Shown one piece after another: positions 6,000 through 55,015 of a stretch of DNA of 64,000 nucleotides. The position numbers and the translations under genes are program-made. The notes beneath the pieces are model-generated. The model did no database searches, was not told where the DNA came from, and saw only the letters and a list, made by a program, of their open reading frames with translations. The stretch lies in NCBI GenBank assembly GCA_043228905.1, contig JBHGNT010000011.1:1922001-1986000 (forward strand), in the 5' to 3' direction. Position 1 is the first letter of the stretch. Each line of letters begins with the position of its first letter. Source of the stretch: Azolla caroliniana (Eukaryota; Plantae; Polypodiophyta).

Positions 6000-6010
6000 T
6001 AGTATAATTT

Positions 6011-6023: not shown

Positions 6024-6057
6024 TACATTTGCAATTAGCAGAGAACAAGTGGAATGG

Positions 6058-19130: not shown

Positions 19131-19934
19131 TGTCGTGAAGATTCTGGGCCATAGGTGGAAACAATGTGAAACACGCAAGGACACTGGTGTGCACGAGTGC
19201 ACACCCCTAGTGAATTAAATAGTGTAAGTACTAGGCATAAGGAGAAAGAGGTGTACTAAGTAGTTAAGGCATTAATAGGGGTTCAAACATCGCATACGGA
19301 GGGAGAGTTACGCGGAGAACGAATCAGGGGGGAGAATCTAGGAAGGGAAAGCGACAGGTCATGAATGCTGTGTAATGGTCGCTCCTTGTGCTATAAAAGG
19401 GGCGACCTTTGACTGGTTTAAGAGAGCCATCTAGAGAGGAGAAAAGGGAGGAGAGAGGAAGGAAGACGAGGAGTCCTACAACGGAACACCGGAAGGCGCT
19501 TCCCCTGCTCGCGTCAAACGCCCGAGTGCTCCCGGCCAGGGGATCGACCTTCTTTGTGCCTATGCAACTTTGTATCTAACTACTGTAGAGACTACGCTTG
19601 ATCACCGACACTGATCCGGTTGTAATCACCCACAGCGCTACGTGCATAATTTTGATTAATAGAAACTTATGTACCTAACGCAAGTTGTTCTTAGCATCTT
19701 TGTCTACGCCTACGTCTACACACAATCCGCTTACACTATCTCTCTCATTTCGCTAACCTTCCCTGTTTAAACCGCGGTCTCAGGGCTCACATAAACCACA
19801 AACTCTTCCTCCTCACTTCTTGATTCCTTGGTTCAAGACCCCCGTGGTCCTGCTCAACTTCTACGCATCCGCGAGGATTTCCTCTACATCTTTGGTGAAC
19901 CCGACATGAAGAGGGGCGGCAAAGGAATCTGAAA

Positions 19935-22051: not shown

Positions 22052-25000
22052 AAAGGGCTATCAAGGCGTGGGGCTGCGATAGTCCGGATAGCCGGAAAAT
22101 TCCCCACATGTGTAAAATAGGAAGGAAATTTTTGTTCTCCGACAATGGGGGATGTACCATAGCCAGCATCAGTGGCCGAGAAAGAAAACGGGCCGAGATA
22201 CGCCTAAAGGGGGGCGGAGCCTTGAGTCATGACAAAGGGATCAGGGAAGCTATGGAGGTAGTCTCATTCGATGACACCCTTGGAGAAATCGGGAAGGTAG
22301 TCGAAGGAGGCCTAAGCGAAGACCGAGTCATACCAGTCAACTCGGTCGACATGTATGAAGTCATTGCGGACTTCAAAAGAAAAACCAGGGCGCATCGGAT
22401 CGCCTGAGTAGACACCAAGTACAAGACTGTGGACTGGAAGTTGAAGCCCGTCGCGGCTCCCTTACCAGAGGGCAGCTGGGAACGAATAAAGGGGGTTGCT
22501 ACCGACCCGAGCTTGTGAGATCCGGCCGGCATAGGACACCGTTTCACCGACAAAACGCTACGAGAGCTCAAGATCGGTGGGGGTGGCTTCCTACTGCCGG
22601 TGGAAGAGGACCGATTCAAAAGGATGCTGGAGAGGCACGAGAAAGCCTTCGCATTCTCGCCGGGAGAGATCGGGTGCGTTGAGCCGACCATTGTCGAACC
22701 AATGGTGATCTTTACCGTGCCGCATGTGCCATGGAGTCTCTAACCGATTCAAGTACCGAGAGCTCACATGTCGATGTTGATGGAGCTTCTTAAGCAGAAG
22801 GTGGATCTGGGCATCCTCGAACCATCGAGTGCCCCTTACTCCAACCAGTGGTTTACGGTGCCAAAGAAGAACAGTATGTTGCGCTTCATCCAAGACTTAC
22901 AACCGGTCAATAAGGTGACCATCCGCAACATGGGGGTTGGACCGACGATCGATGATTTCGCAGAAGCCTTCGCCGGAAGGTGCATATACTCGATCAGAGA
23001 CCTTTACTTAGGGTACAACCAGTTCCAGTTCATCGTGGAAAGCAAGGACATCAGAACAATGTGAACCCCTCTCGGCCTAGTTCGAATGTGTACCCTACCA
23101 CAAGGAGGGACCAACTCGGTGGCGCACATGGTGAATGCAATGAATAGAGTTTTGCGGGACTGCATTCTGAACATCACCATGCCTTCCCTGGATGACATCC
23201 CTGTCAAGGGGTGTCCGGAGGACCCCAAGGATGAGTCGATCGACGCAGACGGGTGCCGAAGGTTTTCACCGACCATATCTCCGACTGCGAGAAGATACTA
23301 CAGAGGTTTGAAGACGCGTGGCTTACCTTCTCGGGAGAGAAGTCAGCCTTCGGACAACCAAAGATCTTAGTGGTGGGCCATCTATGTGGGTCGTATGGCC
23401 GGAAGACATCGCCGACCAAGGCAGAGTCCATCGCGGCAATGAAGGAGGAGTGCGGATCCATCATAGAGGTCCGGCGATTCTTAGGAGCATGCGCCTTCTA
23501 CCACATATGGATCCCTCATTACGCGCACATCACCAAACCACTCTATGGCTTGCTAAAGAAGAGCAGGAAATTCGAATGGACAAAGGAACATACCGAGGCG
23601 GTTTGGAGGCTAAAACGAACACTCACCGTGGCACCGGCTTTGCGCAAAGCGGAATACGCACTGGGAACTCCGGTCTACATCATGGTGGACACCAGCCTGA
23701 CCGGGATCGGATGCGTCGTAAATCAAGAGAACGAAGACGGCACACGTTTCCCTATCCGGTTTGGTGTGAAGGTACTGAGTGAGCGACAACGAGGATACGC
23801 CCAAGTCAAGCGCAAGCTATGGGGTATCATTTCGGCGGTTAAGGTCGACAAAGACTACCTAATCGGGACAAAAGTGATTATAGAAACGGATTGCCTGCCG
23901 ATTCTCGGTATGGTCTCCGGATGCGCAACTCCCGACCTGGCCATGCTCAGGTGGATTGCGTACATCAAATCCCTGAACCCAGAGATACGACACATCTCGG
24001 GTAAAGACAACGCCATGGCCGATATGCTTTCCAGAGCAAAGTTCGAGGATGAGGACGGCATGGTATCAGAGAACGAAGAAGTTGGCGCGAACATCTTCGA
24101 AACAACAAGGATGAGGATAAAAAAGTGAAGTGCTCTACCCCTAAACAAGTTCGACGAAGATAACTACGATGGGGAGTGGCTTCTAATCGGAAGATTTCTA
24201 AAAACAATGACGGCGGACGTCTCGATGACTAGGGAGGAAGCGGGACAGCTCCGAAAAAGGGCATACCGATACTTCCTACGAAATGGGAAAATCTAGAGGG
24301 TCCCAAAAAGGCGAAACGATGCGCCGCTCTGAGTAATAGGACGGGCAGATGATCAAGAGAAGCTAATATTGGAGTTCCACAAAAGCCCTTGGTCTGGACA
24401 CCGGGGTACATGGGTCACGTTCGAGAAGTTAAAGGAGAAATACTGGTGGCTGGGTATATATAAGAGCATGCACGACTTCGTGACCACATGCGAAAGCTGC
24501 CAAATGCACTCAGTGGTTTGTCACCGCGACGAGCTGCACCCAACATACCCCGCAACCGTGCACTTCAAATGGATGGTCGACTTAGTAACGATGTCGATGG
24601 GAGAGGGTCAGAAGCGATACCTGGTGCTGGCTAGAGAAGACCTAATGAACCGGGTAGAGGGCCGGGCACTAACAAACAAGACCACCGCGGCAATATGTAA
24701 GTTTCTAATCGAAGATGTCATATGCCGATATGGGTGCGTGGGAAAAATCATGGCTGACCGAGGCGAGCTGGACATGGAAGAGGCCGAGGAACTGTTTGAT
24801 TGATTAGGCGTAAAACTGTCCCTCATGACGGCGTACAACCCGGAGTCAAATGGAAAAATTGAGTGGGGCCACGGTCCGATCGTAAAGGCCATTGTACGCG
24901 CGTGCGAAGGATGAGTCAGCGACTGGCCAAGGGTGCTCCCTTACATGCTATGGGCAGACTGGACTACCCACAGTTTGGTAACAGGGTACATGCCGGCAGA

Positions 25001-25490
25001 ACTAATGTTCGGACAGAAACCCATCATGCTAGTGGAGCGGACGATCGCCTCGTGGACGACGATCGATTGGGCCAACGAAATGAGCTGAGAAGAACTTCTA
25101 GCAGCCCGAATCCGGCAACTCGAGCGAAGGCCGGAAGATGTGGAGCAGGCCACAATGAGGGTGAAAGAAGCGAGGATTTGGAACAAGGCCCGGTTCAACC
25201 AAACACACCGGCTCCGGCCAAGGAAGATCGAGGAAGGTGATTGGGTGTTAGTCTACGACAACAGCCTCGACAACCAACATAGGTCTATGCGTAAGTTCGC
25301 GAAGCGATGGTTCAGGCCATAGGTGAAAATTAGCTTCAATGATAACGGGACATATCATCTCACGGAGCTCGATGGGACCCGAATGACGACTCTGGTGGCC
25401 GGGAAAAGGATAAAGGCCTTCAAGAGGCGGAGCGAGGCGGAACTGGACCCGGGGTTCGAAAGCACCAGTTCAGAAGGAGAGGATGAGTAG
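22048..25490 (+). pseudogene. pol: Element D ORF2: RT-RH-INT in the -1 frame
   Basis: PQGGTNSVAH, (F/S)LDD, VDTS, ETDCLP, HKSPWSGHRG..C..C, ADRGE. Confidence 0.85.
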
Positions 25491-27526
25491 TAGAGGGCCT
25501 GGAATCCCTCATTAAATTCGCTACCTGGCATATATCAGAGTATGTGCGGTTTACTGGGGGTGGATGTTGTGAAAATTCTGGGCCATAGGTGGAAATAATG
25601 TGAAATGCGCAGGGACACTGGTGTGCACGAGTGCACACCCCTAGTGAATTAAATAGTGTAAGTACTAGGCATAGGAAGAAAGAGGTGTACTAAGTAGTTA
25701 AGGCATTAATAGGGGTTCAGACATCGTGTAAGGAGGGAGAGTTACGAGGAGAACGAATCAGGGGGGAGAATCTAGGAAGGGAAAGCGACAGGTCATGAAT
25801 GTTGTGTAACGGTCGCTCCTTGTGCTATAAAAGGGGCGACCTTTGACTAGTTTAAGAGAGCCATCTAGAGAGGAGAAAAGGGAGGAGAGAGGAAGGAAGA
25901 CGAGGAGTCCTACAATGGAACACCGGAAGGGGCTTCCCCTGCTCGTGTCAAACGCCCGAGTGCTCCCGGCCAGGGGATCGACCTTCTTTGTGCCTACGCA
26001 ACTTTGTATCTAACTACTGTAGAGCCTACGCTCGATCACCAACACTGATCCAGTTGTAATCACCCACAGCGCTACGTGCATAATTTTGATTAATAGAAAC
26101 TTATGTACCTAATGCAAGTTGTTCTTAGCATCTTTGTCTGTGCCTGTGTCTACACACAATCCTCTTACACTATCTCTCTCATTTCGCTAACCTTCCCTGT
26201 TTAAACCGCGATCTCAGGGCTCACGTAAACCACAGACTCTTCCTTCTCACTTCTTGATTCCTTGGTTCAACACCCCCATGGTCCTACCCAACTTCTACGC
26301 ATCCGCGAGGATTTCCTCGACAACGCAATGGTGTGTACCCGACTGGATATCGATACGCAGTCGGAGTGGTGAGCCGGTTTATGAGCAATCCCGACAAAGA
26401 GCACTAGAATGCGGTAAAATGGATACTCCGATACTTGAAAGGCGCCTCAAGTATGTGCCTCAGATTCGGCTCCGGTAAACCCCAACTTGATGGTTTCACC
26501 AATTCGGATATCTGATGCGGATACCAGCCGGTCAACATCGGGATATGTTATGACATATGCAGGGGGAGCTGTTTTGTGGCAGTCAAGGCTGTAGAAGATG
26601 GTTGTGTTGTCAACCACAGAGGCGGAGTACATGGCAGTTGCGGAAGCCGGCAAGGAAATACTATTAAAAACGTCGCGTTCTTCGCAAGGTGGATGGCACT
26701 TTGACTGTCGCAATAGAGCCGGTATTCCTCCTCCTAGATAAAGCTCATCCAACGGAGGTACCATTGGATTCGGGAGCAAGTGGAAGATCGAGAGTTCGTG
26801 CTGACGAAGATCCACACGGAGGAGAACAGGTCGGATATGTTGACCAAAGTGCTGACACCCGACAAGCTGGATGCATGCAGGAAGAGGATCAGATTGACGA
26901 GACATCCCATGCCGGAGTGAAGGGGGAGTTTTTTAGGATTTTGGTCCCTTCATATGGGATATGAGTACCCGACAACGGAAGACCCGGTGAGAACCGGATG
27001 ATGAGTACCCGGCAAGGAAGACCCGGTGAGAACCTCTCACCAGATGAAGGGACATATATGTAAATATGTTCTAGAGAGCCCACTGGGGCTATATTTGTAA
27101 ATTGCCCGAAAGTCATATTAGTATAAATATGACCTAGGGAAAATTCTTGAGTGAGTGTGTATCATTGTGTCGTCATTATTTTGCATAGAGTTATTGGTGT
27201 AATAGCTGTACAAAGCGTAGCAGAAGAAAAGAGAGAGAGACAGAGACAGAGTGAGTCTCTGTTGTAACCGCCGCCAGGCGAAGATTGAGAGCAAGAGGTC
27301 GTGGCCCCTATGTTCATCTATTGTATTCCTCTCTACATAGTGATAGTTGGAGTTTGGGGACTCTCGTGGTTTTTCCCGTTTAGGGTTTTCCACGTTAACA
27401 TCCTGTGCATTCTCTTCTGTTTGTGTACCTACTTCCATATCTTATATTTTTGTGTTTGATTATCATCGAAGTGATCTATGTCTCGGTTGTGGCCGAAGAT
27501 TATTCCGCATTGTTCCTGTCATCGTA

Positions 27527-29377
27527 ATGATGTTCGTGCTAAAAAACAACCCCAACCACATTTCAAAGAGTCATACAGGAAATTTTTGCTGAGTACATTC
27601 CAACATTCATGCAAGTTTTCTTGGATGATTTTGCTGTCTACAATCGGAAGTTAAAACATTTCGAACATTTGCAATTATTTTTGGAACGATGTCGGAAAGT
27701 TCCGCTTAGCCTGAATCCGGCTAAATGCGCGTTCGGGGTTACCAGTGGAGCATTATTAGGGCACATTGTCAGCCAAGAAGGAATTGCAGTTGACCCAGAC
27801 AAGGTCAAGGAGATATTAGATGCACTGACACCAACCAATGCTAAGAGCCTTAGTCGATGTTTAGGGAAAATAAGATGGCATAGTCGTAGGATAAGATATC
27901 TGCTGATGTTTCCATTCCACTGCATACAACAATACATAGAACGCCTTTCCAATGGATGATTGCGGAGCAAGATGCATACAAATGTGTAAAGAAAATGCTC
28001 TCTAGAGTTCCGGTTGTCCAACCGCCTGATTGGAACAAACCATTTCATGTGTTTGTCGATGCATCCGATGTAGCAGTTGGAAGCGCACTAATGCAGTTAT
28101 CCGAACCAAGTTGGTATAGACTAGTTTACTACACTAGTCGGAAACTATCAACAACAGAAATGAATTATTCAACAACTGAAAGGGAAGCTTTGGGAATGAT
28201 TTACAGTATCAACAAATTTCGACACTACCTTCTGGGGAAGAAATATACATTCCATGTGGCTCACTCTGCTTTACTATATTTGGTATCCAAACAAGAATTA
28301 ACTGGCAAACTGGCACGCTCGACGCTATTACTTCAAGAATTTGAATTCGACATTCTGCATAGGCCTAGGAGTGCAACATGCCATCACAGATTACCTTGGC
28401 CGATTAGAGTTGGGAGAAGAGGGCACAAGAGTTAAAGATGATTTTCCGGATGGCCAACTCTTTCGAGTAGACACGGTACGAGTGCAGGAAATAAATGAGG
28501 AGATCTAGGATGCTTGGATTACAGAAATGAAAAATTTTCTTACGACAGGGTTACCACCCGAGCATCTATTAGCAGACGAAAGAAAACGGTTAGCAGTTTG
28601 CAGCCGGAATTTCTGTCTTTTAAATGACACCATGTATCATAAAGGAGTTGATGGAATTTGGCGACGAGCAGTACGACAATTTGAGAAAGAGATAATTCTT
28701 CGAGAATCTCACTGTGGTATCGTGGGAGGGCACTAGGCCGGCGAAACTACTGCTCGGAAAATTTGGAACAGTGGGTTATGGTGGTCGACAATTATGAAGG
28801 ATGTAGTCGAATATTGTCGGAAATGCGATTTATGTCAGGGAATGGGTCAACCTACCGAAAAAGACAGGATGCCATTTCAACCCATCTTGCCTTTGGAACC
28901 ATTCAAGAAATGGGGATAAGACTTTTTTGGCCCATTTAAACCAACAACGATTCGAACAGGGAATCAATACATCATAGTAGCCACTGATTACTGCACTAAG
29001 TGGGTAGCGGCTAAACCCTTACGGGATAACACGACAACGTTGACAACAAAATTTCTATACGAAAGTATATGGTGTTGGTATGGGTGTCCAATTGAATTGG
29101 TAAGTGACCAAGGTACACATTTTATTAATAAAATTGTACATGAATTATGTACATATTATGCAGTGGTTCATAAGAAAAGTACTCTTTATTACCCTCAAGC
29201 AAATGGGTTAGCGGAGTCGACAAATAAAACGCTGCAAATGGTACTCAAGAAAATAATCAATGAAAATTGTATAGATTGGGATCAGAAACTAAATAGTGCC
29301 TTATGGGCATATAGGACTTCATATAAGACTTCTATCAAATCGACTCCTTTTCGCATGGCATTCGGTTTAGAAGCCGT
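27527..29377 (+). pseudogene. pol: Element A RT-RH-INT, degenerate; INT C-terminus continues at 34260-34670
   Basis: VFLDDF, FVDASD, YSTTEREAL, SHCGIVGGH, LVSDQGTHF, YPQANGLAE. Confidence 0.9.
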
Positions 29378-29527
29378 TGTCATGAAGATTTTCGGCAATG
29401 GTGTGAAAATCGCATAAAACATACAAAATCAAGTATGAATCATATAAAACGATAATAGTGAAAATACTATTTTAAATAAGTTTAATATCTTAGTACAAAA
29501 AGATGGAGGTTTTCAAGAGCTTTCGAA

Positions 29528-29909
29528 TGCACTTTACTACATAAGAAACGAACATCTAAGTCTCAAGTTATGTAGGTAGGAAGTTTGCAAAGGAAAAGAG
29601 AAAGATAAAACTGTGAGATATCCCACATAGACAGAACAAATAAGGATCTCACCATATATAACGCAGAGCAAAAGCTATTATCTTTGTGTTTACGTGTGGA
29701 GCATAGAGAGTTCAAGGTGCACTTTACTACATAAGAAACGAACATCTAAGTCTCAAGTTATGTAGGTAGGAAGTTTGCAAAGGAAAAGAGAAAGATAAAA
29801 CTGTGAGATATCCCACATAGACAGAACAAATAAGGATCTCACCATATATAACGCAGAGCAAAAGCTATTATCTTTGTGTTTACGTGTGGAGCATAGAGAG
29901 TTCAAGGTG
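29528..29909. repeat. 190-bp tandem duplication inside solo LTR E
   Basis: TGCACTTTACTACATAAG... starts at 29528 and again at 29718; the copies look identical. Confidence 0.9.
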
Positions 29910-30128
29910 GCTAGAACTAAGCTAATTGGATGAGTGGGTTGGGTGTGGCCTAGCTACTTGTAAGAGCTTTTTGGGCAACCAAAACCGGCGGCATCCGGCG
30001 GCCGGTGACTAGCGATCAGCAAGCAGCAACCGGCCGATGACTGGCAATTGGATCAGGATGTGGACTGGGCCGGACCAAACGGATGCAAATCAGATGGATC
30101 GGTCGGGTCGGTTAATCGCGGTGCATGG

Positions 30129-33100
30129 TAGGGATCGGCAACGGTTCGGTTTAGGCTTAGCCGGTTTGGCCTTATCCAAGCCAAACCGGCTAAGCCTAAA
30201 CCGTTTAGGGGTTTTCAAACCTGAACCGAACCAAACCAAACCGATCCTTAAACCGGTTTGGGATAAACCGGCTTGGTAAACGGCTTGTAAACTGGTTTGT
30301 GAACTTCATTACACAACTCTATTACAATTTATCATTGAACTTCATAACACAATTTATAATTGAACAATCTCCCTCCAATATGTTCCAAATGCAGAATGGT
30401 TACAAGGCTTAGAGGAAAACAACAAGAAAACATAAAATGTGAAATGCAAGGCAAATTTAACTAATAGATAATTAAAGAAAAACAACGAGAAAAAATTGAC
30501 TATTCCAAAAATGTTAACTATTCCAATAATTGTCCCAAGTCATAATATTCCAAAAAAAATCACTTGTCCAAGTATAAGTATTCAATAACATCATCCTCGG
30601 CAATAATCTCTTCTAAATTGATATCTAAAGTATCATATGCATCATTAATATCTTCAGGAATTGGAATATTAACACTATCAAGTAGATCTATCCAAGATCG
30701 TATGCACATCTCGGCCTTGAAAGTGCACGAATGCAACCGTTGCCTATCGTCGAAGTTATCACGAGCTTCAGAGTTAGCTTCCTCTAAAGGCACTGATGAA
30801 GCTGGAATAGCCAAATAATCGCATGCCATTTTATACATCCTTGGAAAAATGGATCTGTTTCAAATCATAAAAAAAGATACTATCAAAATGTGTTCATTAA
30901 TTACCAACAATAACAAATTTGTTTAATACAACATGATGCAATATAGCTTGAAACCTGTTGGTAGACCACCAATGTAGAGGGTCTACGGAACTCTTCACTC
31001 GTGGAACCTTCAAGAAACCTTCAATTTTTGTCCGAGCTGATGATTCATGAGATTTGTCATTGTTCATATCCCAAATATCCAAAAAATCAAATGGAGATCC
31101 TTCACATGCATCTTCAGATAGAGAATCTTCGACATTAGGATCATGATATTGGGTTGTCAAGAAACTTTGCACCAATTCTATATCGCGGTCTCTCTCAATT
31201 GGATTAGGTGGTTTTGGAATTCTACACTCAAACAAAAGACACTATTAGTAAGAAAGAAAGATTAAAAAGGGGGAATTTTCAGTTAAAAACATTAGTACCT
31301 CGGGTCAACAAACATTGCGATTCGAGATGGAATAGATTTCAGGGATTCTTGGTACTTGATTAGATATTGTAAGCATTTGTTACCAGCCTGTTGTTGCACT
31401 TGAAGAGTAATCTTCTCGGAGGATGAATCAACCGAGTTCATATCCATAGAAATATATTTATTACAATGTGCTAATAAGTTGTTGAATGCAAGTGCGGCTA
31501 TTGAGAGGGTCAGATACTTTGACCCACTCAAGTAATTACAAATTTTAGCAAGCACAAGCAACCATTGTTCCATACTTTGTATATGACTCCAATCTTCTAT
31601 GGAGAGTGTATGGTCCACAAACTCATTAGCAATGACATTGTCACTTGTGGTACAAATCAAGACATCTCTTAATTTTAGGGATTGTTGATACATTATTAGG
31701 GTTGAATTCCATCTAGTAATGCAATCTACACATGGTGGTTCATGTTCTCCATTCTCATGCATGGTTTTTGAATATTTTTTAAATATAACTCTACTCACTT
31801 TACTTGTGCATATAGAATGTAATGTCTTCCTTAACTTCATAGTAGACAGAGTAATAACTTCTAATGCAGACTTTACACCTAGTTGATATGTATGCACCAT
31901 GCATCTTAACATATGTGATGATTGTAAAATGTCTTGTCCATGATGACAAAGTAATAACCTAGCTAATTCTTTTGATGCAACTAGAGATTCACTAGCACCG
32001 TCAGAAGTTGTAGATAGAAGACGTGAAGCGATATTAAATGATTTTAAACGAGAGAATAAAGCTTTTCTGACACGTTTTCCTACCCCATCTCCCGGAAAGA
32101 CATCTAGGAAATCTAAAAGCACACTAGCCGGCTTAGTAGACTCGAAACAAACAAAATGTAAAGTCACGGGATAAAATCCTTTCAAACTGTTGTTTGTCCA
32201 CCCATCAAATGTTATAGCATATCTAAAATTTTGTGAGGACAAATAAGTAATAACTAAATGGCGAAGAACAACATACATTCGTAACACTAATCTCTTAAGT
32301 GTACGAGATGATTTAAGTTGATAAGTGGGCAAGACTTCATGCATTAATCTCTTAAAACTAGAAGACTCAATATGTGCATGAGGTAGCATTGATGTGACTA
32401 TGTATCTAACAACAGTACTATCAAACTTCTTCTCTAGAGTACGAGATATAGTTAATGTAGATGAAGTAGCATCTATGTTACTTTGGACAAGAACATTGCT
32501 AGAAGTTTGTGGTTGTGATGTGCTATTAATATTATGCTTATCTAATAAATGCTTGGCGATAGAACTTGTAGATGTAGAGCTTGCCCACATCAAGTGACAA
32601 TAGGCACATCGACACTTATATGCATCTCCGTCCTTAATGGAGATCATGTGTTGCTCGGTCCATGAAGTTCTTTTTCTTGCCTTTGTTTTGCCTCTAGGGG
32701 CTAATGTTGATGTTACCTCTTCCATATCAATGTATGTTATTGTACCTATAAAATTTTGGTTATAAAAGATAATGAATTCTTTTGAAATGTCCTACTCTAA
32801 TCATGAGTTATTACATTGTGCCACATTATGGCTCAATTTGACTATATCATTATTCATATATGTGTATAATTATATTGTGAATCTTACTTCATATATGACT
32901 ACATTGTAGACTGTAGTGACAAATTACAATGATTGTGGGTATTACTTAATATGAGCCTTGAGGTAAAGTAATTTTAAATTGACTATAGTCTGTAATATCA
33001 TTATTCATATATGTGCATAATTATATTGTGAAATTATGTGAATCTTACTTGTAGGCTTTGTAAAATAGATGGAATAAAGCACTTTGTAGGCTTGGAAGTT

Positions 33101-33647
33101 GGGAGTCGGGGCTGCACCATGCACGTAGGCGGCAACAACAGGTCGTCGTCTTCCACTTTCTAGTATCTACTATGCAGCAGACCTCTCTCTCTCTCTCTCT
33201 CTCGCGCGCGAGCGCGGGCGCGGGTGTCTGTGTCGATGGATTGGTCACTATCTGTGTCGAGAGTCCTATTACCTAAGTCCGAGTCGTCTGTCTGTGTTGA
33301 GCAATGAGACTCGAGAGGCTAAAGTCTTATTACCTAATTAGTAATACCTAAGTCATCACTTTGGAGTCTGTGTGTACACAGTACACTCAACACTGTAGAC
33401 AATAGACTCATGACTCGTGACCACTGACTACTAGTTAGAACTTAGACTCTTGACTAATTAGAAGTTAGAACATAGACTTTAGCAATAAACTATAGTTACT
33501 AGTAATTACTAATTAAATCACTTAAACGGCTTGAGCCGGTTTGGCGAGGCTCAAGCCAAGCCGAGCCGAGCCCCTAAGCCGCTAAGTCGTTTTCAAGCCG
33601 GCTAAGCCAAACGGTTTAGGCTTGAGCCGAGCCGTTGTCGATCCCTA
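30129..33647 (-). mobile_element. hAT DNA transposon, structurally complete
   Basis: TIRs TAGGGATCG(G/A)CAACGG(T/C)TCGG; perfect 8-bp TSD GTGCATGG (30121-30128 / 33648-33655); subterminal AAACCG/AAGCCG repeats at both ends. Confidence 0.95.
30560..32725 (-). CDS. hAT transposase, 3 exons (32725-31299, 31221-30955, 30854-30560), 662 aa
   Basis: BED finger (CAYC..HLLDKH), ITFDGWT, TTSDGAS, LRCMVH, TRWNST, DPR, PLHWW, DYLAIPASSVPLE. Two GT-AG phase-2 introns join into a 1989-nt open frame. Confidence 0.88.
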
Positions 33648-35109
33648 GTGCATGGTGTCTTAAAGATATTTGGTCCAAAAGCCTAATAGTATTTTGTGCA
33701 TAAAAGAAAAAGATGTAAGCAAGACTCAATCTTTGCACCTCCAAGATAAGAAGCAATAGGCTTACCATTAAGCCAAACCATTTCTTTGGGGATTGTATTT
33801 TTATCATTATAGCTTTACATGTAAATTCTCATATTAGAGCTTGATTGAGTTACATGTGATGCATGAGCGCCAAATAGCAAACATGCATCACATGCATCCC
33901 ATGCATTGTATGCATGTCTTGTACCCTTACATGCATCATATGCATGGGAGCATCTATAAAAGGGTGGATGAAAAAGATCAAGGGGGGCTTGGTACTTTAT
34001 ATCAAAATTAATATTAAGAAGAAAATTTGTTATCCAATTGATGTATTAATCTTGTTCTTCAAATCTAAAGTCAAGAGTTCAATCTTAATCTCTCTCTCAA
34101 TCTAAAGTCAAGCGTTTTATCTTATCCCAATCCCTCTCTTTCAATCTATCTTAAATCCGTTCTCGCTAAAGCTAGTGCAAACTTCGAGTCCTTCTGGTCT
34201 AGAACCTCGGTGGTTCCGCCTCACGATCCGCACTTAGTGACGGATCTTCACGACACCGTAATGCCAATAGAGTTTCAAGTTCCGACACTCCGAATTCAAG
34301 CAACAGGAAGGTTAGATGAGCTACGGTCAGAACAAATTCAGAAAGAAGGATTACTGCTATTAGAGGAAAGTCGGATATAGGCTATGATACATTTAGAGTG
34401 GAAGCAAAGACAAACGAAAGCATTTGTGGATCGTCACGGTCGACATGTAGAGAAACAGTTCGCAATCGAAAAACCGGTGTCAGTGTTTCAAACAAAAATG
34501 GGGTCTATGCCTAGGAAGCTTTGATTTCGATGGACGGAACCATTCTAGATTATTAATAGCAAAAATGGTACGTACCAGGTTAGAACCTTGTTCGGTGACA
34601 TTCTACCGAAATGGGTAAATGGTTTTCGACTTAAACCCTATCATGGGTCAATACCGAATAACCCCTTTTAGGCTACATCCTCCACAACGTGACATGGTAG
34701 ACATCACACACACACACACACATAAAATTAAAATAAAATAAAAAGTCAAATAAAAATAGTAACTAACTAATTATTATCTTGGCAAAAAGTAACTATCAGA
34801 AAAGGGAATCTTGGGGAAGTCTGTGTCACACTATAAGTAAACTAGTGGTAATAATGCATGCACACATTACAAGAGTAGTGGAGCCATTATTACTATTTCT
34901 AGACTATTACTTACATTAATAGTAGCTTTCTCTATTCCCTAGGCATCATGCAACAATTCATTTCCTTAAAACCTATTTCTTCATCTTCTGTGTCACCACA
35001 GAGACAAAAGCGTATTCGTTCTGAAAAGTTTTCTGCTCTTCCTTGCCATAGCCTAAAGCTTTCTTCGTTTTCACCACAGAACTCCGACCTTTCTCTTTAA
35101 GACGAAATA

Positions 35110-37081
35110 ATGTCAATCCCTGTTTCCGATAACCTGCGCTAGTGACTTGTGAACAAGAATCTGCAAGGTTTCATCAAGGTTGCAGATGCAGAGCCCCACC
35201 CTCGTGCAACAAATTGATGTCTCCAAAATTATGAACAAACAGGAAGGCTTTCATGATGTCTAGAAAATGGAAAAAGACATCCTTAGGTCGTATTTCGGAG
35301 AATATTCTCCCTCGGCCAAAGCTTTTCAAACACGGGGAGGGGAGGACAAATTTTTTCATGAAGTGGCCAAATTTTTGTTAGAAGTGGGATTTGTTAGTCC
35401 CCGATTTTACTGCATGCCCAAAAAGAGAGTTGGCTTCATAATCGCCACGTACGAGGGCAAATTTTTTGACTGGGGGTTGTTGTCAGCAGAAGCTCTGCGG
35501 GAGCAGCTATATGGGGTGCAAAAAGGGAAACCAATGAATCCGATCTTTGCTCGCTGGTTGTCGGTGCTTTTTCCGACCTAGAGATTGGAAAACCGACAAG
35601 AAGAATAGAGGCCGCCATGACCACAACTAGTTTCCCGACCCTGACGACAGGTACAACGTGAGGAGTGGCAGGAAGTAGAATCGACGTAGGTCGATGCCAC
35701 TTAATCGGAACCCAAACAACAGTAATCGACAACCTCACCAGTTCCGGAGTTGACACAAAATCCCCCACCCAACTCAGTACCTATCCCACAACCACCCCAA
35801 CCTAATCAAGAATCGGCACTTGTTGAACCTGACCAACCGATGCAACGACAACGTCGGGTAAAGCGAAGGGCTCAACGCTTTCCGTAGGCTTAGGAAGAGG
35901 AACTTGCACAGAAAAAGCAGAGAACAGAGGAGCAAGCCATGTAGCCCACACAAGTACCTCGTGTCAATCCAAACGACACAACCAGAATCCAGAAAGGGCA
36001 GTCATCTGTAACAACAGTGCGGGAAGCAACTGCATTCTCCGACATCCCTCCAGCAGCACATGAACTTGCTGCCATTCTACAACTTGTTACTTCTTATGAA
36101 TTAGTAGAATGGTTGGCCCATAGATTAGAGGAGTTGTCGGAGAGAATGGCACAGGAGCATCAGGATAATATAATGATTCAAAAATCCTTAAGTGGAGCTG
36201 TCGAGCCGGAAGAACAACAGGAGGTTGAAAGGATAGGTTGACAGCGAAATGCCAAAAATAAGGGGGAAGCGATACAAATTCCTCCCTTGCATGAGGCATT
36301 GGTTGAAGTGCATAGGGAATATGAACAAGCAAGCAGAGCAATCAAAGATATGGCTGATTTATACAAAAAAGCAATAGCAGTGTTAGAAGTTTTGAATGAG
36401 AAATATACAAGAATGCAAGCTGAAAAAGAAGAACTGTCAGAGAAATGCCGACAGACTGAAGAAAAACTAAGGAAAGTCGAAGAAGAATGATTAACACGCC
36501 AACAACCAAACAAGCTTTCCAACTTTGAGTAGGAACTGAAACAAAGATTGCAGGAAGCAAAAGCATCTACTCTATCTGCAACAACACGACCAGAACAAGC
36601 CGACGCAAGGGCCAAAAAGATACAAGAGAGGCTACTTTGGCTAAAACAGGTAGCCGAACTTCAATTTCTACGAGTCGACAGGGACAACCAGAAGGCACAA
36701 GGAAAAGGCTTCTTCAAAATGACGAAAGAAGCAATATCAACTATTCAAGAAGATATTGCTAAAGATTTGTACAACATGGCAGCTTGTCACCGCGAAGAAG
36801 TTAGTCGACTCATGCAGGAATTCGATGAACATGAGATCGACACAATTGTTCAGTTGGACACCTTTGAAGCCGAAAGACAAAGCCAAATTCCAAGGCTCGA
36901 CACACTAGAGCCAGTTGCACCACCACCACCATGACCATCGATCGAGGATACATAACCACCTGCAGATTTAGACGATGACGACAAGGAGAGCCAACAACAC
37001 GAACCTTCCTTGTTTGATATTTTGCAGGACGACGCTGAAGATGAATTGGATGAGGACCTTCCTCCCATCCAGCCGGCATAG
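35110..37081 (+). pseudogene. Element A 3' extra ORF (sense): globular N-terminus, Pro/Gln linker, coiled coil, acidic tail
   Basis: Collinear fragments 35267-35581, 36017-36241, 36287-36490 and 36548-36934 broken by stops; lies between pol and the 3' LTR. Confidence 0.7.
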
Positions 37082-37131
37082 AAGGTATCGTGGGTTGGCC
37101 GGGCAAGGCCTTGGCCCACGGGCGTGCCAAG

Positions 37132-37600
37132 TGTTACATGGACAAAGGGCCAAACGGACATAGTGGGGAAGCATCAGAGTTGGAAACATCAGAGTTGGAG
37201 GTTCGGAGTCGAAGTCGAAGTCGGATTGAGGAAGAAGATCGATGAGTTAGTTACAAGTTTTGTAGTTCTTGCCAATAGGGCAATATGTATTTCTCGATGA
37301 GGAAGTCCTTCAGGTTGCCTATAAAAAGGAACCGATGGCATTGTAAAATCGATCATTTTATTTTTAGTACTATAAGTTTAGTTGTAGGAAATATCGGTGT
37401 GTAACTGTTTGTTTTCTGTTAATCTATCCTACTATAACTGTATTACATAAGTAACGATCTCGATGTCTGTGTAACATCGATAAGATTACAGTAACTTAGT
37501 ATCTATTCACACAACCACAATTCTTTGATAGAACATTCAGTACAAAACGTTCGAACTCCGCTGTGTGTCGGCAACAGAGTCAATGGTCGGCCGAACAACA
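37132..37600 (+). repeat. Element A 3' LTR
   Basis: Matches 5537-5999; followed by TSD TTGTA. Confidence 0.9.
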
Positions 37601-37769
37601 TTGTATGTACAGAGCATTATTATTTTGAAATTGAGTTTATGTTGTTTTGCTCTCTCTGTCTCTCCCACTCTCTGTTCTGTGAGTCAAGCTTCCATTAAAC
37701 CTTGTCTCTGTTTTCTGTTGCTATCTGGATAAACCGGTTTGTCAAAGCTTTAGTATATTAACTTTTACA

Positions 37770-47318: not shown

Positions 47319-48688
47319 GCGTTGTCGAGGATGTCCTCGTGGATGCGTAGAAGTCGGGTAGGACCATAGGGGTCTCGAACCAAGGAAAAAGGAAAGCGAG
47401 GAGGGAGGAGTTTGGGGATCATGTAGGTCTTGAGAACACGTAGGTCTTGAGAACCAAGGAAACAGGGAAGCGAGTAAGTCTAGCGAATGAGAGAGAGTAA
47501 GAGAGTCACGCGTAGACACAGACACGAACAAAGACACTGAGAACAAAGTATGTTAGGTAGCAAGAGTTCTATTAAAACACAGGTGCACGGTGTTATGAGC
47601 GGTTACAGCCAGGTCAGAGCCGGTGATGGAGCGTGGAGCTTTGGCAAACAGCCAGGTACAAAGAGACGTCGGTGCGCAGAAGGTCGATCCCCGGGTCGGG
47701 AGCACTTGGGCGTCTAACACGAGGAGGGGAAGCGCCTTCTTCCTCGGTCAGTCCTCGGCCGTTCTTTCTGTATCCTTTTCTCTAGATGGCCCCCTGAAGA
47801 CAGTCAAAGGTCGCCCTTTTTATAGCACAAGGAGCGACCGTTACAAGCATTCATGACCCATCACTTTTTCGTCCTAGATTCTCTCCTCATAACTCTCCCT
47901 ACTTATGCGATGTCTATACCTTCTTTAATGCTTAGTAGTTATCCTATTTAATTCCCCTCGAGGCGTGCACTCGCGTTGTCGAGGTTTTCCTCGCGGATGC
48001 ATGGAATGAGGCGGGACCTCAGGGGTCCTGTACCGAAGAGCAAGAGAGAAAGGACAAGAGACCCACTACGTGCGAGCGTAGATTCACAGGGACACGGCCC
48101 TTCGACACAAAGATGCGAGTGGGACAGCGACACAGAGAAACACGAATGTATGTATGTATTAACAAAGACAACAACAAGAACACGGGAGCAACAAAAACAT
48201 GAAGTCGGTTACAACCGAACAGGCCGGCGAACAGATGTTGATGCCTGTTCGTAAACGCACAGAAAGACAGGAGCAGGTTGGAGGTGCTGCCGGAAGCACT
48301 CGGGCATTCCTCAGAGCAGCGCGAGCCTCCCGAAACCTGCACAGAAGGAAGCTATGGAGTTTGCGAACCAGAGAGAGAGAGAGAGAGAGAGAGAAGCCTT
48401 CGCACACAAACCGACAGCACTTCGTCCTCGGCTCTCCGCGATCCCATCCCCCTTCTCGTCTCCCTCCTTTTATAGGCAAGGAAGGAGCCGTTTCCCCCTT
48501 TCTTCCTACCCACTAAATCTACCTGCCTAGGATCTTCTATGGACAACATTCGAGAAGAGCCGGTTCCTACGCTCATGTGCACCGATTCCGCTTGTGGACG
48601 GTTTTCTTCACGACATCCGCCCCCACCTAACCGCGCATCCACCGGCATGCGCCAAATTGAGTTGGGACGGAGAAAACCGGTCCAGCCT

Positions 48689-51600
48689 TCATTCCCCGCC
48701 CGTCGGTTCTTCCTCGGTTTCGGATCGTTCGTCGTCGCGGTCCAAGCCAACCGGATCCGGCTCGTCATCGTGACGCTTCTTGAACGCTTTGATCCGCTTC
48801 CCCGCTACCGGTATCGCCATTCTCGTACCGTCGAGTTCCGCCAGATGGTACGTCCCGTTGTCGTTGGCACTTTGTACCACGTAAGGCCCGAACCACCTTC
48901 TTGCGAACTTCCGTGTCGCTCGGTGCTGGTTGTCAAGGCTGTTGTCGTAGACTAGCACCCAGTCGCCTTCCTCGATCTTCTTCGGTCGGAGCCGGTGCGT
49001 TCGGTCGAACCGGGCTTTGTTCCTCATCCTTGCTTCCCGAAGCTTTTCCGCAGCCTGCTCCATGTCCTCCGGTCTTCGCTCGAGCTGTCGTATACGCGCC
49101 GCCAGCAGTTCCTCCCCGCTCATCTCGTCTCTCCAGTCCACGGTTGCCAACGAGGAGATCGTACGTTCCATCGGCATGACCGGCTTCTGCCCAAACATGA
49201 GTTCTGCCGGCATGAATCCGGTTACCGAACTGTGCGTAGTTCGGTCCACCCACAACGTGTAAGGCAGCAGTCGCGGCCAGTTCCCGACTTGACCTCCGCA
49301 TGCCCGAACTAACGCCTTGACGATCGGTCCGTGTCCGCGCTCCACCTTTCCATTCGCCTCCAGATTGTACGCAGTGGTAAGCGAGAGCTTGACTCCTAGC
49401 CGGTCGAACAGCTCCTCGGCCTCTTCGGCGTCCAACTACTCGTGGTCAGCCACGATCTTCCCGACACACCCGTACCGGCATATCACGTCCTCAATCAGGA
49501 ACCAACATACGACCGCGGTCGTTTTGTTCTGAAGGGCCCGGCCTTCTACCTGGTTCGTCAGATCTTCCCGAGCCAGGACCAGATACCGCATCTGTCCTAC
49601 TCCCATCAGCATCGTCACCAGGTCTACCATCCATTTGAAGTGGATGGTCGGAGGGTACGTAAGGTGAAGCTCGTCCCCATGTCGGACTACGGAGTGCATC
49701 TGATAGCTCTCGCAAGTCGTCACGAACCGATGCACATCCCAGTACAGTCCCGGCCACCAGTACTTCCCCTTTATCTTCTCGAACGTGGCCCACGTTCCAC
49801 GGTGTCCAGCCCAAGGGCTGTCGTGGTAGGCCGTCAGCAGCTCCTCCTCTTCTTCGGGTGCTTCCATAAGTATCCGCCCCGGAGAAAGAATCAGTAAGCT
49901 TTCTTCCGGATCCGGTTGGCCTCGTCCTTCGTCCATGACGCATCCGGCGTCATTGTCCTCAAAAATCCAGCGATCTAGAGCCACTCGCCATCGTACCTGC
50001 TCTTGTCAAAGTCGTTAAGTGCCGGAGTGCTCGTCCCATCGGTCGTTACGTACGCCGACTCGAAGAAGTCCACGCCGACTTCTTCGTCCTCCGAAACCAT
50101 GCCGCCCTCGTCATCAAACCTCGCCCTCGAAAGCATGTCGTCCATGGCGTTGTCCTTTCCGGAAATGTGTCATATTTCCGGGTCCAGGGACTTGATGTAC
50201 GCTATCCACCGGAGCATTGCCAGGTCCGGTGTCGCGCATCCGGAAACCATGCCGAGAATCGGCAGGCAATCCGTCTCGATAACCACTTCTGTCCCGATCA
50301 GGTAGTCTTTGTCGGCCTTTACTGCCGAAACGATACCCCAGAGTTCGCGTTTAACTTGGGCGTACCCTCGTTGTCGTTCACTGAGGACCTTCGCGCCGAA
50401 TCGGATCGGGAACCGAATGCCGTTCTTGTCCTCTTGGTTGACGACCCATCCGATCCCGGTCGGACTCGTATCCACTGTTATGTATACCGTGGTACCCTTC
50501 CCGTAGACAGCCTTCCGGAGCGCCGGTGCTGCCGCAAGAGCTTCCTTCAGCTTCCGGACCGACTCCGTGTGCTCGTCTCGCCACTCGAATTTTCGCCTTT
50601 TTTTCAGCAACCCGTATAGCGGCTCCGCAACGTGGGCGTAATGCGGGATCCATATGTGGTAGAATGCGCATGCCCCCAAGAACCTCCGAACTTCCGTGAC
50701 CGAGCTACAAACGGCTTCCGGCCATATGGTCCACATAGGTGTCCGACCACCAGGATTTCCGATTGCCCGAAGGCCGATTTCTCCCCGGAGAAGGTGAGCC
50801 TCGCATCCTCTAGCCTTTGTAGCACCTTCTCGCAGTCATCGATGTGTGTTGCCATGAATCGCCGGCATCCGTCCGGTCCGAGTGTTGCGTCCCTCTCTTC
50901 TATCGGGCACCCCTTGATCGGAATGTCGTCTAGAAATGGCATGGTGATGTCCGGGATGCAATCCCTCAGTACCTTGTTCATTTCATTCACCATGTGGGCC
51001 ACCAAGTTGGTTCCTCCTTGTGGCAGGGTACACATTCGCACTAGGCCGAGGGGAGTTCGCATCATCGTAATGTCTCTGCTCTCCACGGCTAGCTGGAACT
51101 GGTCGTACCCCGAGTATAGATCACCGACCGAGTAAATCGACCTTCCGGCGAAGGCCTCCGCGAACTCGTCTATGGTCGGTCCGATTCCTGCGTTCCGAAT
51201 GGTCACTCTGTTGACCGGCTGCAGGTCCTGAATGAAGCGCAATGTTCCGTTTTTCTTTGGTACGGTAAACCATCGGTTCAAGTATGGCGCGCTCGACGGT
51301 TCGAGAATACCCATATCGACTTTCTGCCTCAGTAGCTCCATCAACTCCGGGATGTGAGCTCTTGGTACCGGAATCGGCTTGAGATTCCACGGCACATGCG
51401 GTACCGTGAATATCACCATCGGCTCCACGATTGTCGGGTCTACGCACCCGATCTCTTCCGGCGAGAATGCGACGGCTTTCCCGTGCCTTCCGAGCATTCT
51501 CCGAAACCGGTCATCCTCCGCCGGCAGTAGGAACCCGCCCCCACCGATCTTGAGCTCCCGGAGCGTCCCGTCGGTGAAGGTGTGTCCTATGCAGGCCGGA

Positions 51601-52072
51601 TCTCGTAAACTGGGGTCCGACGCCACCCCTCTGATTCGGAACTCGCTGCCCTCCGGCAAGGGTGCCGCGACTGGCCTTACCTTCCAGTCCACAGTCTTGT
51701 ACTTCGTGCTAACTCGGGCCGTCCGATCCAACCCGAGCCCCCGACTGAAGTTCGCGATGACTTCATACATCTCTTCGGAACATACCGGTATCGTCCGGTC
51801 TTCGTTAAGGTCTTCTCCGGCTACCTTCCTCAGCATTCCCAAGGTGTCGTCGAAGGAGACTGCCTCCATGGCTCCGCTGATTTCCTCGTCCGGGCCGAGA
51901 ACTCCGCACGCTCGAAGTGGCACTTCCGCCCTTGTCTTTTCTCGGCCGACGATGCCGACTATCATACACCCTCCGTTGTTGGAGAAGCAAAATTTCCTAC
52001 CTACCGTACAGTCGTGGGGTCCTTTCCGAGTGTCCGGGCTATCTCGGCCCCACGCCTTGGCAGCCCTCTCTA
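48689..52072 (-). pseudogene. pol: Element I ORF2: RT-RH-INT (-1 frame), with stops and small deletions
   Basis: PFLDDIP, VDTSP, YHDSPWAGHRG, WFGPY. Confidence 0.9.
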
Positions 52073-54196
52073 AAAATCCTCCCGGTTCTCGCCACCGAGG
52101 GATTCACGGTTTCTCTCGTGGTTCGGCCGCACCGTCAGAAATTGCACCGAATGGCGCCCGTCCTGGCTTTTGACCCTCGCGTAGGCCGAACTGTTCTCCA
52201 GCACCTTGGTCTCCATTCTCGCCGCCGTGATGTATGGTTCCCCTAATATGACTGGATGCGAGGACGTCTCCTGTACGAAGAAGTGTTGGTCAATCTCGAT
52301 GTCGCCGATCTTTACTCGCACATTCGGGCAGGCCCCGTGCAGTTCCTCGGTGGCGCGCGTCGCCGCCCGTATCTTCCACCCGTGCCTGGTGTTGATCGGC
52401 CACTTTCCCCTCTTATAGAAGTCCATGGACATTAGGTTTATTTCCGAACCGTGGTCCACCAACGCCACCACCGGTTCCTGAACATCTCCGATCTTTACCG
52501 GGGTCTCCGTGGTCGCTCGTGCCCAGTGTGGCCTCGAATAGTGGCTCTCCGCCCACTCATCTGCCAGCGCCGAGTCGTCGATGTGCGTCGTCCGCACCTC
52601 CACCAGTCTTTCCGGTTCCGTCTCCGTCGACAGCCTCTTCCGTTTCACCAAGTCTACAATGGAGTCATGGAACTCCTTCTTGGCGATCCCTAGCACCTCC
52701 CGCAATGACAGCTCCACTTTGCTGTCGAGGATCCGTTCTTCTAGGACCTTTCGTAGGTCCGTAGTCCTTTCTATTTCCGTCCCCAGTCGGTATCCGCCCT
52801 TCCTGGGGTTATCTTGCGAGCTGGACCCACCGGCATCGTTCCGTCGCTGCCCGAATCGGGTCTCGTACCGTTGTGAGGGCCCGGCCGCTCCGGCTTTCCC
52901 CACTCGTTTGTCTTCTACCAGAGCCTTGTAGTTCCGGCAGGCGGCTTCTACGAAGCTCGTCTTCTCCTCGACCGGGTCGCTCCACCCGGTTACTTCCCGG
53001 ACCCGTCTCTCAGCGCGGTCCGTTTCATCTTTGCTCAGTCGTGCGCCGGCGAGGCCTTCCAGCATTGCTGACCAGAAACCGTCTTTGCTCTCCTTTCGGG
53101 CCTCGCTGCCCCCGACCCGAATACCGGCCGACGCCGAGTAGTGGATGGCCTCCACATGTCGGGCCGCTGCCTCTTCCATCAGTCTCTTCATACCTCCTCG
53201 CCCGTCGTTTCGGTTCAGGGCCCTCCTGGTGTCGTCGGCGTGCACCCGGCCTTCCCACAGGTACACCACCCGGTTTCTCAACGCCTCTGCGAAATCGCCG
53301 CAGTCCTTCCGAATGTGGCCGATCTCGTCGCACCACATGCACCTGTTCCCCGCTGCCGGCCGTCGGTCACGAGCCGGTTCGCCGTCTTCCCTTCGAGTCT
53401 GGGTGATCTGGAGATCCTTTATCGCCCGCGTCAACTCCTCCAGCACTGCCCCTCCGGACGAGCCATTGACCATGCCGGTCGAAGCCGGACCCGTTTCGAG
53501 CCATTCCCGGGTTTCTTCCCTTCGCACTTGCGGTGCCGGTTCAAGCCTCCTTGCTGTGACAGAGCCCGCACCGGCTGCCCCGTTGTCAGCCCATTCTCGC
53601 CGTTTGTCGAAACGGCCACAGACTCTCTTAACCGCAGCCCAGTCGGTTGTCAGCCTGTCTTCGGTTTCCAGCAAGGAGCCGACTTGATCCCTGTCCCGCT
53701 CATCCACCGACTTGACGAACAATAGGACCCGGCTCGTATCCAGAACGGTTCGGTCAAGCGCCGAAAGGCGCGCAAAGCGTTCTTCGAACTCCCGGAGGAG
53801 TGCCGACGCGTTTCTTCCCTTGCCAGGGGACTCCACCCATTCCATGAAGTCCCGTTTCGAAAGCCGGAGCGCGTCGTCCAGCCCGTATTTTTCCAGGAGT
53901 CGGCCTTCGAACTCCTCCCAGGTACAGCTCTTCGCCCGCACCTCGAGCACCTCCGCATGGATGCTCAGCATCGCCACTCGAGGAAACCCGGCAAGACGCC
54001 TCTCTTCCGGAATGTCCCGCATCAGCATTTCTGCCCCGTAGGATGCCAAATACTTCGTGGCATCCTTTCCGCTGAACCGGCCGATCGTACTGACGACCGC
54101 CTGAATGGCTCTGTCGAGGGCGTCGGTGCCCTCGCGTGCACTCAATATCCGATCCACGGCCGAAGCCATGGCCTCCGCAAGATCCGACCCTTTCAT
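52070..54196 (-). CDS. gag: Element I ORF1: gag (CCHC) plus aspartic protease with a DHG triad, open frame
   Basis: ATG at 54196 just after the PBS; CMWCDEIGHIRKDC; ALVDHGSEINLM; VILGEPYI. Confidence 0.88.
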   Translation of the reverse strand: MKGSDLAEAMASAVDRILSAREGTDALDRAIQAVVSTIGRFSGKDATKYLASYGAEMLMRDIPEERRLAGFPRVAMLSIHAEVLEVRAKSCTWEEFEGRLLEKYGLDDALRLSKRDFMEWVESPGKGRNASALLREFEERFARLSALDRTVLDTSRVLLFVKSVDERDRDQVGSLLETEDRLTTDWAAVKRVCGRFDKRREWADNGAAGAGSVTARRLEPAPQVRREETREWLETGPASTGMVNGSSGGAVLEELTRAIKDLQITQTRREDGEPARDRRPAAGNRCMWCDEIGHIRKDCGDFAEALRNRVVYLWEGRVHADDTRRALNRNDGRGGMKRLMEEAAARHVEAIHYSASAGIRVGGSEARKESKDGFWSAMLEGLAGARLSKDETDRAERRVREVTGWSDPVEEKTSFVEAACRNYKALVEDKRVGKAGAAGPSQRYETRFGQRRNDAGGSSSQDNPRKGGYRLGTEIERTTDLRKVLEERILDSKVELSLREVLGIAKKEFHDSIVDLVKRKRLSTETEPERLVEVRTTHIDDSALADEWAESHYSRPHWARATTETPVKIGDVQEPVVALVDHGSEINLMSMDFYKRGKWPINTRHGWKIRAATRATEELHGACPNVRVKIGDIEIDQHFFVQETSSHPVILGEPYITAARMETKVLENSSAYARVKSQDGRHSVQFLTVRPNHERNRESLGGENREDF

Positions 54197-54218
54197 CTTC
54201 TGCTCTTCTGCCGCCTCC

Positions 54219-54236
54219 TTCACGTCGGGTTCACCA
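54219..54236 (-). promoter_or_regulatory. PBS complementary to tRNA-Trp
   Basis: The plus strand TTCACGTCGGGTTCACCA equals the 3' 18 nt of plant cytosolic tRNA-Trp as recalled; 4 nt from the LTR. Confidence 0.8.
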
Positions 54237-55015
54237 AAGATGTCGAGGTTTTCCTCGCGGATGCGTGGAATGAGGCGGGACCTCAGGGGTCCTGTACCGA
54301 AGAGCAAGAGAGAAAGGACAAGAGACCCACTACGTGCGAGCGTAGATTCACAGGGACACGGCCCTTCGACACAAAGACGCGAGTGGGACAGCGACACAGA
54401 GAGACACGAATGTATGTATGTATAAACAAAGACAACAACAAGAACACGGGAGCAACAAAAACACGAAGTCGGTTACAACCGAACAGGCCGGCGAACAGAT
54501 GCCGATGCCTGATCGTAAACGCACAGAAAGACAGGAGCAGGTTGGAGGTGCTGCCGGAAGCACTCGGGCATTCCTCAAAGCAGCGCGAGCCTCCCGAAAC
54601 CTGCACAGAAGGAAGCTATGGAGTTTGCGAACCAGAGAGAGAGAGAGAGAGAGAGAAGCCTTCGCACACAAACCGACAGCACTTCGTCCTCGGCTCTCTG
54701 CGATCCCATCCCCCTTCTCGTCTCCCTCCTTTTATAGGCAAGTAAGGAGCCGTTTCCCCCTTTCTTCCTACCCACTAAATCTACCTGCCTAGGATCTTCT
54801 ATGGACAACATTCGAGAAGAGCCGGTTCCTACGCTCCTGTGCACCAATTCCGCTTGTGGACGGTTTTCTTCACGACAGTGTATACCGATATTCCTGCGCG
54901 TTTCACCTTGTTTCCGCTTATGGCCTGGACTCTTCACGACATCCACCCCCACTAAACCCCACATCCTCCGGTATGTGCCTGATTGCGAATTTAGTGAGGG
55001 ATTCCGGGCCATCGG

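Follow-up and report, generated by a model that had tools for sequence, protein, structure and literature searches.

The window analysed here, a 64,000-nucleotide stretch of Azolla caroliniana DNA, contains element A, a decayed Ty3/gypsy LTR element on the plus strand that measures about 8.7 kb once three nested insertions are removed. Comparison of its direct LTRs, which begin with TG and end with CA, places the 5′ LTR (TGTTAC...AACA) at 5537-5999, with loose contig ends at 5999, and the 3′ LTR at 37132-37600; the pair is 89% identical in an ungapped alignment. A target site duplication (TSD), TTGTA, flanks the LTRs on both sides, at 5532-5536 and 37601-37605. The 5′ LTR is followed by an 11-nt spacer (6000-6010), which is kept in relatives, and by a primer binding site (PBS) at 6011-6023 complementary to the 3′ end of host tRNA-Arg(UCU), over 9 nt in the window copy and over 13 nt with the majority C at 6020. 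The initial annotation of this DNA had recognised the PBS, which lies not next to the LTR but 11 nt from its end. This distance is shared within the family of element A (L011:1815-1826), and is 5, 4 or 2 nt among other loci (L004, L041, L023, L010); an overhang of 11 nt would be long for an integrase to trim.

The coding part follows the Ty3/gypsy order of gag, then reverse transcriptase (RT), RNase H and integrase, for which the close relative P0002 was likewise examined. A broken gag (6058-7470) gives a Retrotrans_gag match just below the curated cut-off, and the protease is represented by a D-G-G-S motif near 7900 only, which has no Pfam match. RT and RNase H (8731-28345) survive in pieces at 8731-8811, 14445-14708, 27543-27920 and 27902-28345, split by nested elements at 8812-14449 and 14711-27521, and the integrase (28509-34670) is in two pieces around an insertion at 29379-34255. 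Between the integrase and the 3′ LTR lies a broken extra ORF, also forward, with approximate ends at 34950 and 37080 and no Pfam family at cut-off.

Other elements in the window have features of their own. The nested one at 8812-14449, on the minus strand, is a gypsy element with 98% identical LTRs and no TGG-type PBS; it clusters with algal chromoviruses in the tree described below and may be self-priming. The insertion at 29379-34255 is bounded by TG...CA and contains both a tandem duplication of 190 nt (29528-29909) and, on the minus strand, an ORF of 499 aa (31295-32791) without a Pfam match. Three related LTR elements, at 19131-26322, 47977-54877 and 55000-60350, show an apparent 4-bp TSD and a PBS that we take to resemble tRNA-Trp; their RT-RNase H shares 24-26% identity with that of the relative of element A and sits on a very long branch, and one of their ORFs has a DUF4100 match.

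In the longest relatives, the extra ORF encodes 1,050-1,180 aa and lies forward between the integrase and the module described below (L004:1381-4890, L067:104-3640, L019:71-3397). It matches no Pfam family at cut-off, giving weak coiled-coil-type matches only, and has no Atlas match; its seven homologues are unnamed. A quick tree of 74 RT-RNase H rows, with SH-aLRT as its only support measure, unites element A and L073, which carries the module, in a clade of 9 rows (SH-aLRT 100), which is nested in a 14-row clade made up of unnamed sequences (99). In this tree, built without REXdb references, the 14-row clade lies among fern and liverwort rows, apart from a 16-row flowering-plant clade, and the nearest named proteins are from a fern, liverworts and a moss. 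Archaeal-type RNase H gave no Pfam match in P0002, P0007, the ORFs of element A or five extra ORFs, and because it is absent the lineage is not Tat.

A tRNA-derived module beside the 3′ LTR

LTR retrotransposons and retroviruses are regarded as starting the plus strand almost without exception from a polypurine tract (PPT), a feature for which annotation tools search. A canonical Ty3/gypsy element has it directly before the 3′ LTR, where element A, as the initial annotation stated, has none: the last 25 nt before the LTR contain no run of purines longer than 3. The four other elements tested, B, C, D and E, have G-rich tracts at this position, again as first described, yet D and E reach at most 5 consecutive purines. 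Element A instead has GGCGTGCCAA (37121-37130), which is, letter for letter as first reported, the exact reverse complement of TTGGCACGCC (6010-6019) and is followed by AG-TGTTAC. Exact copies of TGGCACGCC in the 64 kb number two, one at the PBS and one inverted 2 nt before the 3′ LTR. When the 30 nt after the 5′ LTR were compared with the 30 nt before the 3′ LTR, the longest inverted match was 10 nt in element A and 4 nt in each of B, C, D and E; a 10-nt match was reached in 4 of 20,000 random pairs.

The initial annotation had also drawn a hairpin upstream of this sequence. The hairpin is present, but the GGCC/GGCC stem given for it rests on a private G at 37097, where relatives mostly have C, and the family stem is GGGC/GCCC around AAG. 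Taken alone, the hairpin of the window copy is not unusual (z = -1.47, with 16 of 200 shuffles equally good).

No tRNA genes or Rfam matches were found in the window. At the metagenome locus L014, a 76-nt tRNA-Arg(TCT) with an encoded CCA lies antisense (L014:2079-2154, minus strand), separated by a 5-nt spacer from the right end of a module-bearing LTR, and a second, decayed copy is found near 2800 in the same contig. This tRNA, joined to the LTR through the spacer of the family, is likely a primer that was copied whole into DNA. It differs from the module and the PBS at two positions, presumably through later mutations.

The initial annotation had pointed to the tRNA-Arg set, and the module does match a real tRNA-Arg(UCU), that of L014. 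Its 5′ part (37090-37098) is a sense copy of tRNA positions 49-57, with G for C at 37097 in the window copy. There follows an inserted hairpin of 16 nt (37099-37114) in place of positions 58-60, made of 2 bp, a bulged T, 4 bp and a 3-nt loop, which covaries between families. The 3′ part (37115-37129) is a sense copy of positions 61-76 without C66; it ends in CCA and resembles a PBS when read on the minus strand. A 2-nt spacer, AG (37130-37131), leads to the LTR and is replaced by TG, GG or 4 nt in other families. The module lies outside the 3′ LTR and is absent before the 5′ LTR.

Recurrence of the module across families

Contigs from four sequencing runs (three studies, two organism labels) were aligned to 36900-37300 at 80% likeness. 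Summed contig depth, which is not copy number, was 3,657-17,731 over 37096-37137, compared with 50-2,749 in bins outside 37082-37151, and many contigs end loosely on either side of 37096-37137. The depth peak and the loose ends together indicate a core of about 45 nt common to elements with different flanks. Four of the 32 contigs listed, from a total of 1,065, span the module with at least 31 letters on each side.

A metagenome collection was scanned with a degenerate pattern of the split tRNA end in 52 of its 64 parts, yielding 123 stretches at 121 loci, of which 88 fit a single 40-42-nt module architecture. The 33 that do not fit were dropped before any counts; they have a mean GC content of 66%, versus 48%, and no match to pol or to the extra ORF. 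TG follows CCA after exactly 2 nt in 76 of the 88 module loci, compared with 5 of the 33 others. Matches to the extra ORF of element A occur in 36 of the 88 (29-71% amino acid identity over the best stretch) and matches to pol in 6. Depending on two cut-offs, the 88 loci form 29 or 23 clusters by upstream flank, between which the likeness score is 0.83 for the module and 0.36-0.40 for the flanks. They belong to one accession series, which may be one campaign. Since they were chosen by motif, relatives with a PPT could not appear among them, and only the aligned-contig result is free of this bias; the pattern also fixed most tRNA-matching letters, whose invariance is thus partly built in. Viral contigs gave no match to the exact motif and no confirmed relative of P0002; one match with 69% GC does not fit the module.

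The letters of the inserted hairpin were left free by the pattern. Among 53 distinct 40-nt modules, it is 95.6% paired, with four of its six pairs changing on both sides, and RNAalifold independently recovers the 4-bp stem. Over the whole named structure, 57 cells show two-sided change, compared with 18 in shuffles, a contrast that is not a probability, since the structure was derived from these same rows, which are related to one another. The match to the tRNA ends at G57. Position 58 varies between A, T and C, with a base other than A in 20 of 88, and tracks its hairpin partner; in the tRNA, A58 is expected to be methylated and unable to pair. C66 is missing in all 88 modules.

The initial annotation had considered that most relatives might carry a normal PPT. 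This result did not appear: the motif is kept across many families, the metagenome loci among them being motif-selected, and it matches a real tRNA-Arg(UCU). A one-off rearrangement was rejected, as the module recurs both in the aligned contigs and in the metagenome loci. From these sequence comparisons, the replacement of the PPT in this Ty3/gypsy lineage is real, conserved and structured, and not an accident of one copy.

L010, L022, L026 and L049 hold tandem units of about 2.2-2.5 kb (LTR, PBS, internal part and module) with shared LTRs. These short units are non-autonomous derivatives that retain the module.

Priming of the two strands

For the minus strand, the evidence points to host tRNA-Arg(UCU), and not the module, as the primer. 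The tRNA copy at L014 bears on this, as does the PBS, which matches the tRNA better: in L004, L041 and the majority of the relatives of element A, it pairs over 13 nt with the tRNA and over 11 nt with the module, because it keeps the partner of C66.

For the plus strand, the initial annotation had offered three options, namely priming by a second tRNA-Arg, mimicry of a tRNA by the element's own RNA, and pairing of the 5′ and 3′ sites. The dual-tRNA option fits best. Here, the split tRNA site on minus-strand cDNA would bind a second host tRNA-Arg, which primes the plus strand, a reading whose probability we regard as evenly poised. Extended to the whole clade, autonomous and non-autonomous, it would have both strands primed with host tRNA-Arg(UCU), the captured piece of the primer serving as a split, RNase H-resistant site in place of the PPT; this wider statement is likewise in even balance.

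The minus strand would start from host tRNA-Arg at the 5′ PBS and, once RNase H had cleared the RNA, the cDNA would expose LTR-NN-TGGCACGCCC-GTGGG-[hairpin]-CGAACCCAC. A second tRNA, aided by the Gag zinc knuckle, would pair through its positions 61-76, with C66 bulged, and 49-57, while the DNA hairpin would be looped out opposite positions 58-60 as a three-way junction. RT would then extend the tRNA CCA through the spacer into U3, after which RNase H would remove the primer and integrase would trim the spacer. The bulge and the hairpin would split the hybrid into short pieces and could, speculatively, shield the primer from RNase H. For minus-strand priming in Ty1 and Ty3, split sites at which the T-arm of the primer is opened have been described (PMC5371799).

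The pattern of base changes, counted at positions left free by the search pattern, favours a tRNA site on the cDNA. Among the 88 modules, 26 have T55>C and 13 have G67>A. G51>A is combined with an unchanged C63 in 7 and with C63>T in 2; C63>T alone occurs in none. T55>C, G51>A and G67>A are predicted to be wobble-tolerated between minus-strand DNA and the tRNA, whereas G51>A with C63 kept is expected to place an A-C mismatch in the stem of the plus-sense RNA, which would tolerate C63>T alone. The changes seen are thus mostly those that minus-strand DNA paired with the tRNA should tolerate. When the minus-strand module was cofolded with the L014 tRNA copy, using RNA parameters as a proxy and no modified bases, the tRNA CCA end lay on the site in 12 of 12 cases; by inspection, the 49-57 segment was also paired in 9 of the 12, the exceptions being L004, L116 and the window copy. 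The LTR-NN-TGG geometry mirrors that of a PBS, and the complete CCA-ended copy behind an LTR at L014 indicates that this same tRNA is the one used by the lineage. The RNase H catalytic residues D-E-D-D are intact in P0002 and L073, and loss of RNase H was rejected as a reason for the loss of the PPT.

Several observations stand against dual-tRNA priming or do not bear on it. The loci examined showed no tRNA copy at the left end of an LTR; the G51>A asymmetry comes from about two lineages only; and T72>C, also wobble-tolerated, occurs in none of the 88. The universal loss of C66 counts against a perfect tRNA site, which would keep this base. Moreover, RNA primers other than a PPT are generally poor substrates for extension on DNA by RTs, which tend to cut them. 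Of the two folds, the plus-RNA hairpin has the greater stability, with folding energies of -17.6 to -26.3 kcal/mol compared with -5.7 to -12.9 kcal/mol for the DNA hairpin. The inner hairpin assigns no strand because both G-T and A-C appositions occur in it, and the pyrimidines at -1 and -2 (84 and 74 of 88) are compatible with either strand.

The stability of the plus-sense RNA hairpin predicted by folding is one of the points in favour of the module RNA itself as plus-strand primer, a tentative reading that we consider rather unlikely. The hairpin would refold and escape RNase H, its 3′ 10-12 nt would stay on the cDNA, and RT would extend from a cut at or just after CCA. The module sits exactly at the position of the PPT, and no second tRNA would be needed. 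The outer stem could be extended by U-G or C-G pairs at -1 and -2 in 47 and 43 of 53 rows, in the L013 family G67>A creates a U-A pair with -1, the outer stem is lengthened by the absence of C66, and G-U outnumbers A-C at one inner pair by 8 to 2. Such a primer, however, need not keep the host tRNA sequence, yet the module is alike between clusters (0.83) where the flanks (0.36-0.40) and the extra ORF (29-71%) have diverged. Further, the 5′ strand of the acceptor stem is not kept, with pairing in only 23 of 53 rows at position -3 and 19 at -4; in 7 loci an A-C mismatch interrupts the stem; and no more than 47 of 88 modules retain both T-loop bases, T55 and A58. This last count weakens the mimicry of tRNA shape proposed in the initial annotation, although the RNA may still act as an RNase H-resistant primer.

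Direct pairing of the module with its own PBS over 10-12 bp, which would form an RNA circle or dimer or self-prime the minus strand while the plus strand is primed otherwise, appears improbable. In its favour, the third of the original options has one family-level coincidence: the L013-type family combines A at position 67 of the module with T, its complement, in the PBS (L023, L027, L078, and L032 with one further change), while the related L010-type has G and C. One tandem unit in L022 also carries a matching CpG change at both sites, a single case. The L013-type changes fit direct pairing and a tRNA variant alike, as a host tRNA gene with A67 would equally explain them. The longer match of the PBS to the tRNA speaks against module-PBS pairing, as does the intact host tRNA joined to an LTR end via the family's spacer at L014, and such pairing leaves the missing PPT and the fixed distance to the LTR unexplained. 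Highly improbable, in our judgement, is that the captured tRNA piece has some other job, as a packaging signal, a cleavage mark or a Pol III B box, while the plus strand is primed by random RNase H fragments or by a purine run that is short or lies upstream. Capture would be easy, as L014 indicates that the lineage's RT is able to copy an entire tRNA, and in some families, that of element A included, the letters immediately 5′ of the module are rich in purines. Over the 15 nt preceding the module, purines nonetheless average 48% and reach at least 80% in only 3 of 88, and the left ends of the LTRs are sharply defined, with TG at +3/+4 in 76 of 88, unlike those expected of random priming. An upstream PPT was rejected, no purine tract being kept there, and so was a Pol III B box, whose canonical form is found in none of the 88 modules.

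Comparison with known elements

In a full-text literature search, which used exact-word matching and covered few subscription journals and no Repbase entries, we found no description of a tRNA site or tRNA-like piece in the place of the PPT. That a tRNA-derived module is kept at this position while the LTRs and the extra ORF diverge far suggests that the step starting the plus strand can be rewired. Should either leading model be true, whether a second host tRNA or the element's own structured RNA, the start signal would be of a type not found in print. The system also brings a general question within reach of experiment, namely how an RNA primer on DNA can evade RNase H yet be extended by RT. 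Finders relying on a PPT may overlook such elements or put them in the wrong place.

Element A resembles canonical Ty3/gypsy elements, of which Ty3 of S. cerevisiae is an example, in the order gag-(protease)-RT-RNase H-integrase, in its TG...CA LTRs and in its tRNA PBS, and split primer sites pairing with both the acceptor stem and the T-arm have a precedent in Ty1 and Ty3 (PMC5371799). It differs in having no PPT and, at the position of the PPT, a tRNA-like piece that is sense in the RNA.

Among plant lineages, the absence of a chromodomain, the 5-bp TSD, the length of about 8.7 kb after removal of the inserts and the extra ORF 3′ of pol are shared with the non-chromoviruses of REXdb (Athila, Tat, comprising TatI-III, Ogre and Retand, Phygy and Selgy), as presented in the part of PMC6317226 available to us. 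The same text gives a tRNA-Arg PBS, as in element A, for TatIII, Ogre and some Retand; the lineage of element A differs from Tat in having no archaeal-type RNase H. The dominant PBS of Athila is for tRNA-Asp, tRNA-Asn or tRNA-Ala, in contrast to tRNA-Arg(UCU) here, and Phygy and Selgy have a 4-bp TSD, a PBS for tRNA-Trp (Phygy) or tRNA-Ala (Selgy) and no extra ORF, where element A has a 5-bp TSD, a tRNA-Arg PBS and an extra ORF (PMC6317226, same part). The three primer types set out there all concern the PBS, and replacement of the PPT is not among them.

Pieces derived from small RNAs are also found in the TRIM elements Helenus, Ajax and Cassandra, being tRNA-like in Helenus; in these LTR elements, which have a PPT, the piece is part of the LTR itself and, according to the author, the tRNA-like piece has no complementarity to the PBS (PMC10886601). 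In the lineage of element A, by contrast, the piece is outside the LTR, complementary to the PBS and in place of the PPT, and it is carried by autonomous elements. The self-priming elements Tf1, Tcn1 and TAR likewise have a part of their own RNA that is complementary to the PBS, but there the minus strand is started by a self-primer derived from the 5′ LTR portion of the transcript (PMC6317226). The complement in element A is internal, lies at the 3′ end and derives from a tRNA, and L014 preserves the record of a host tRNA primer.
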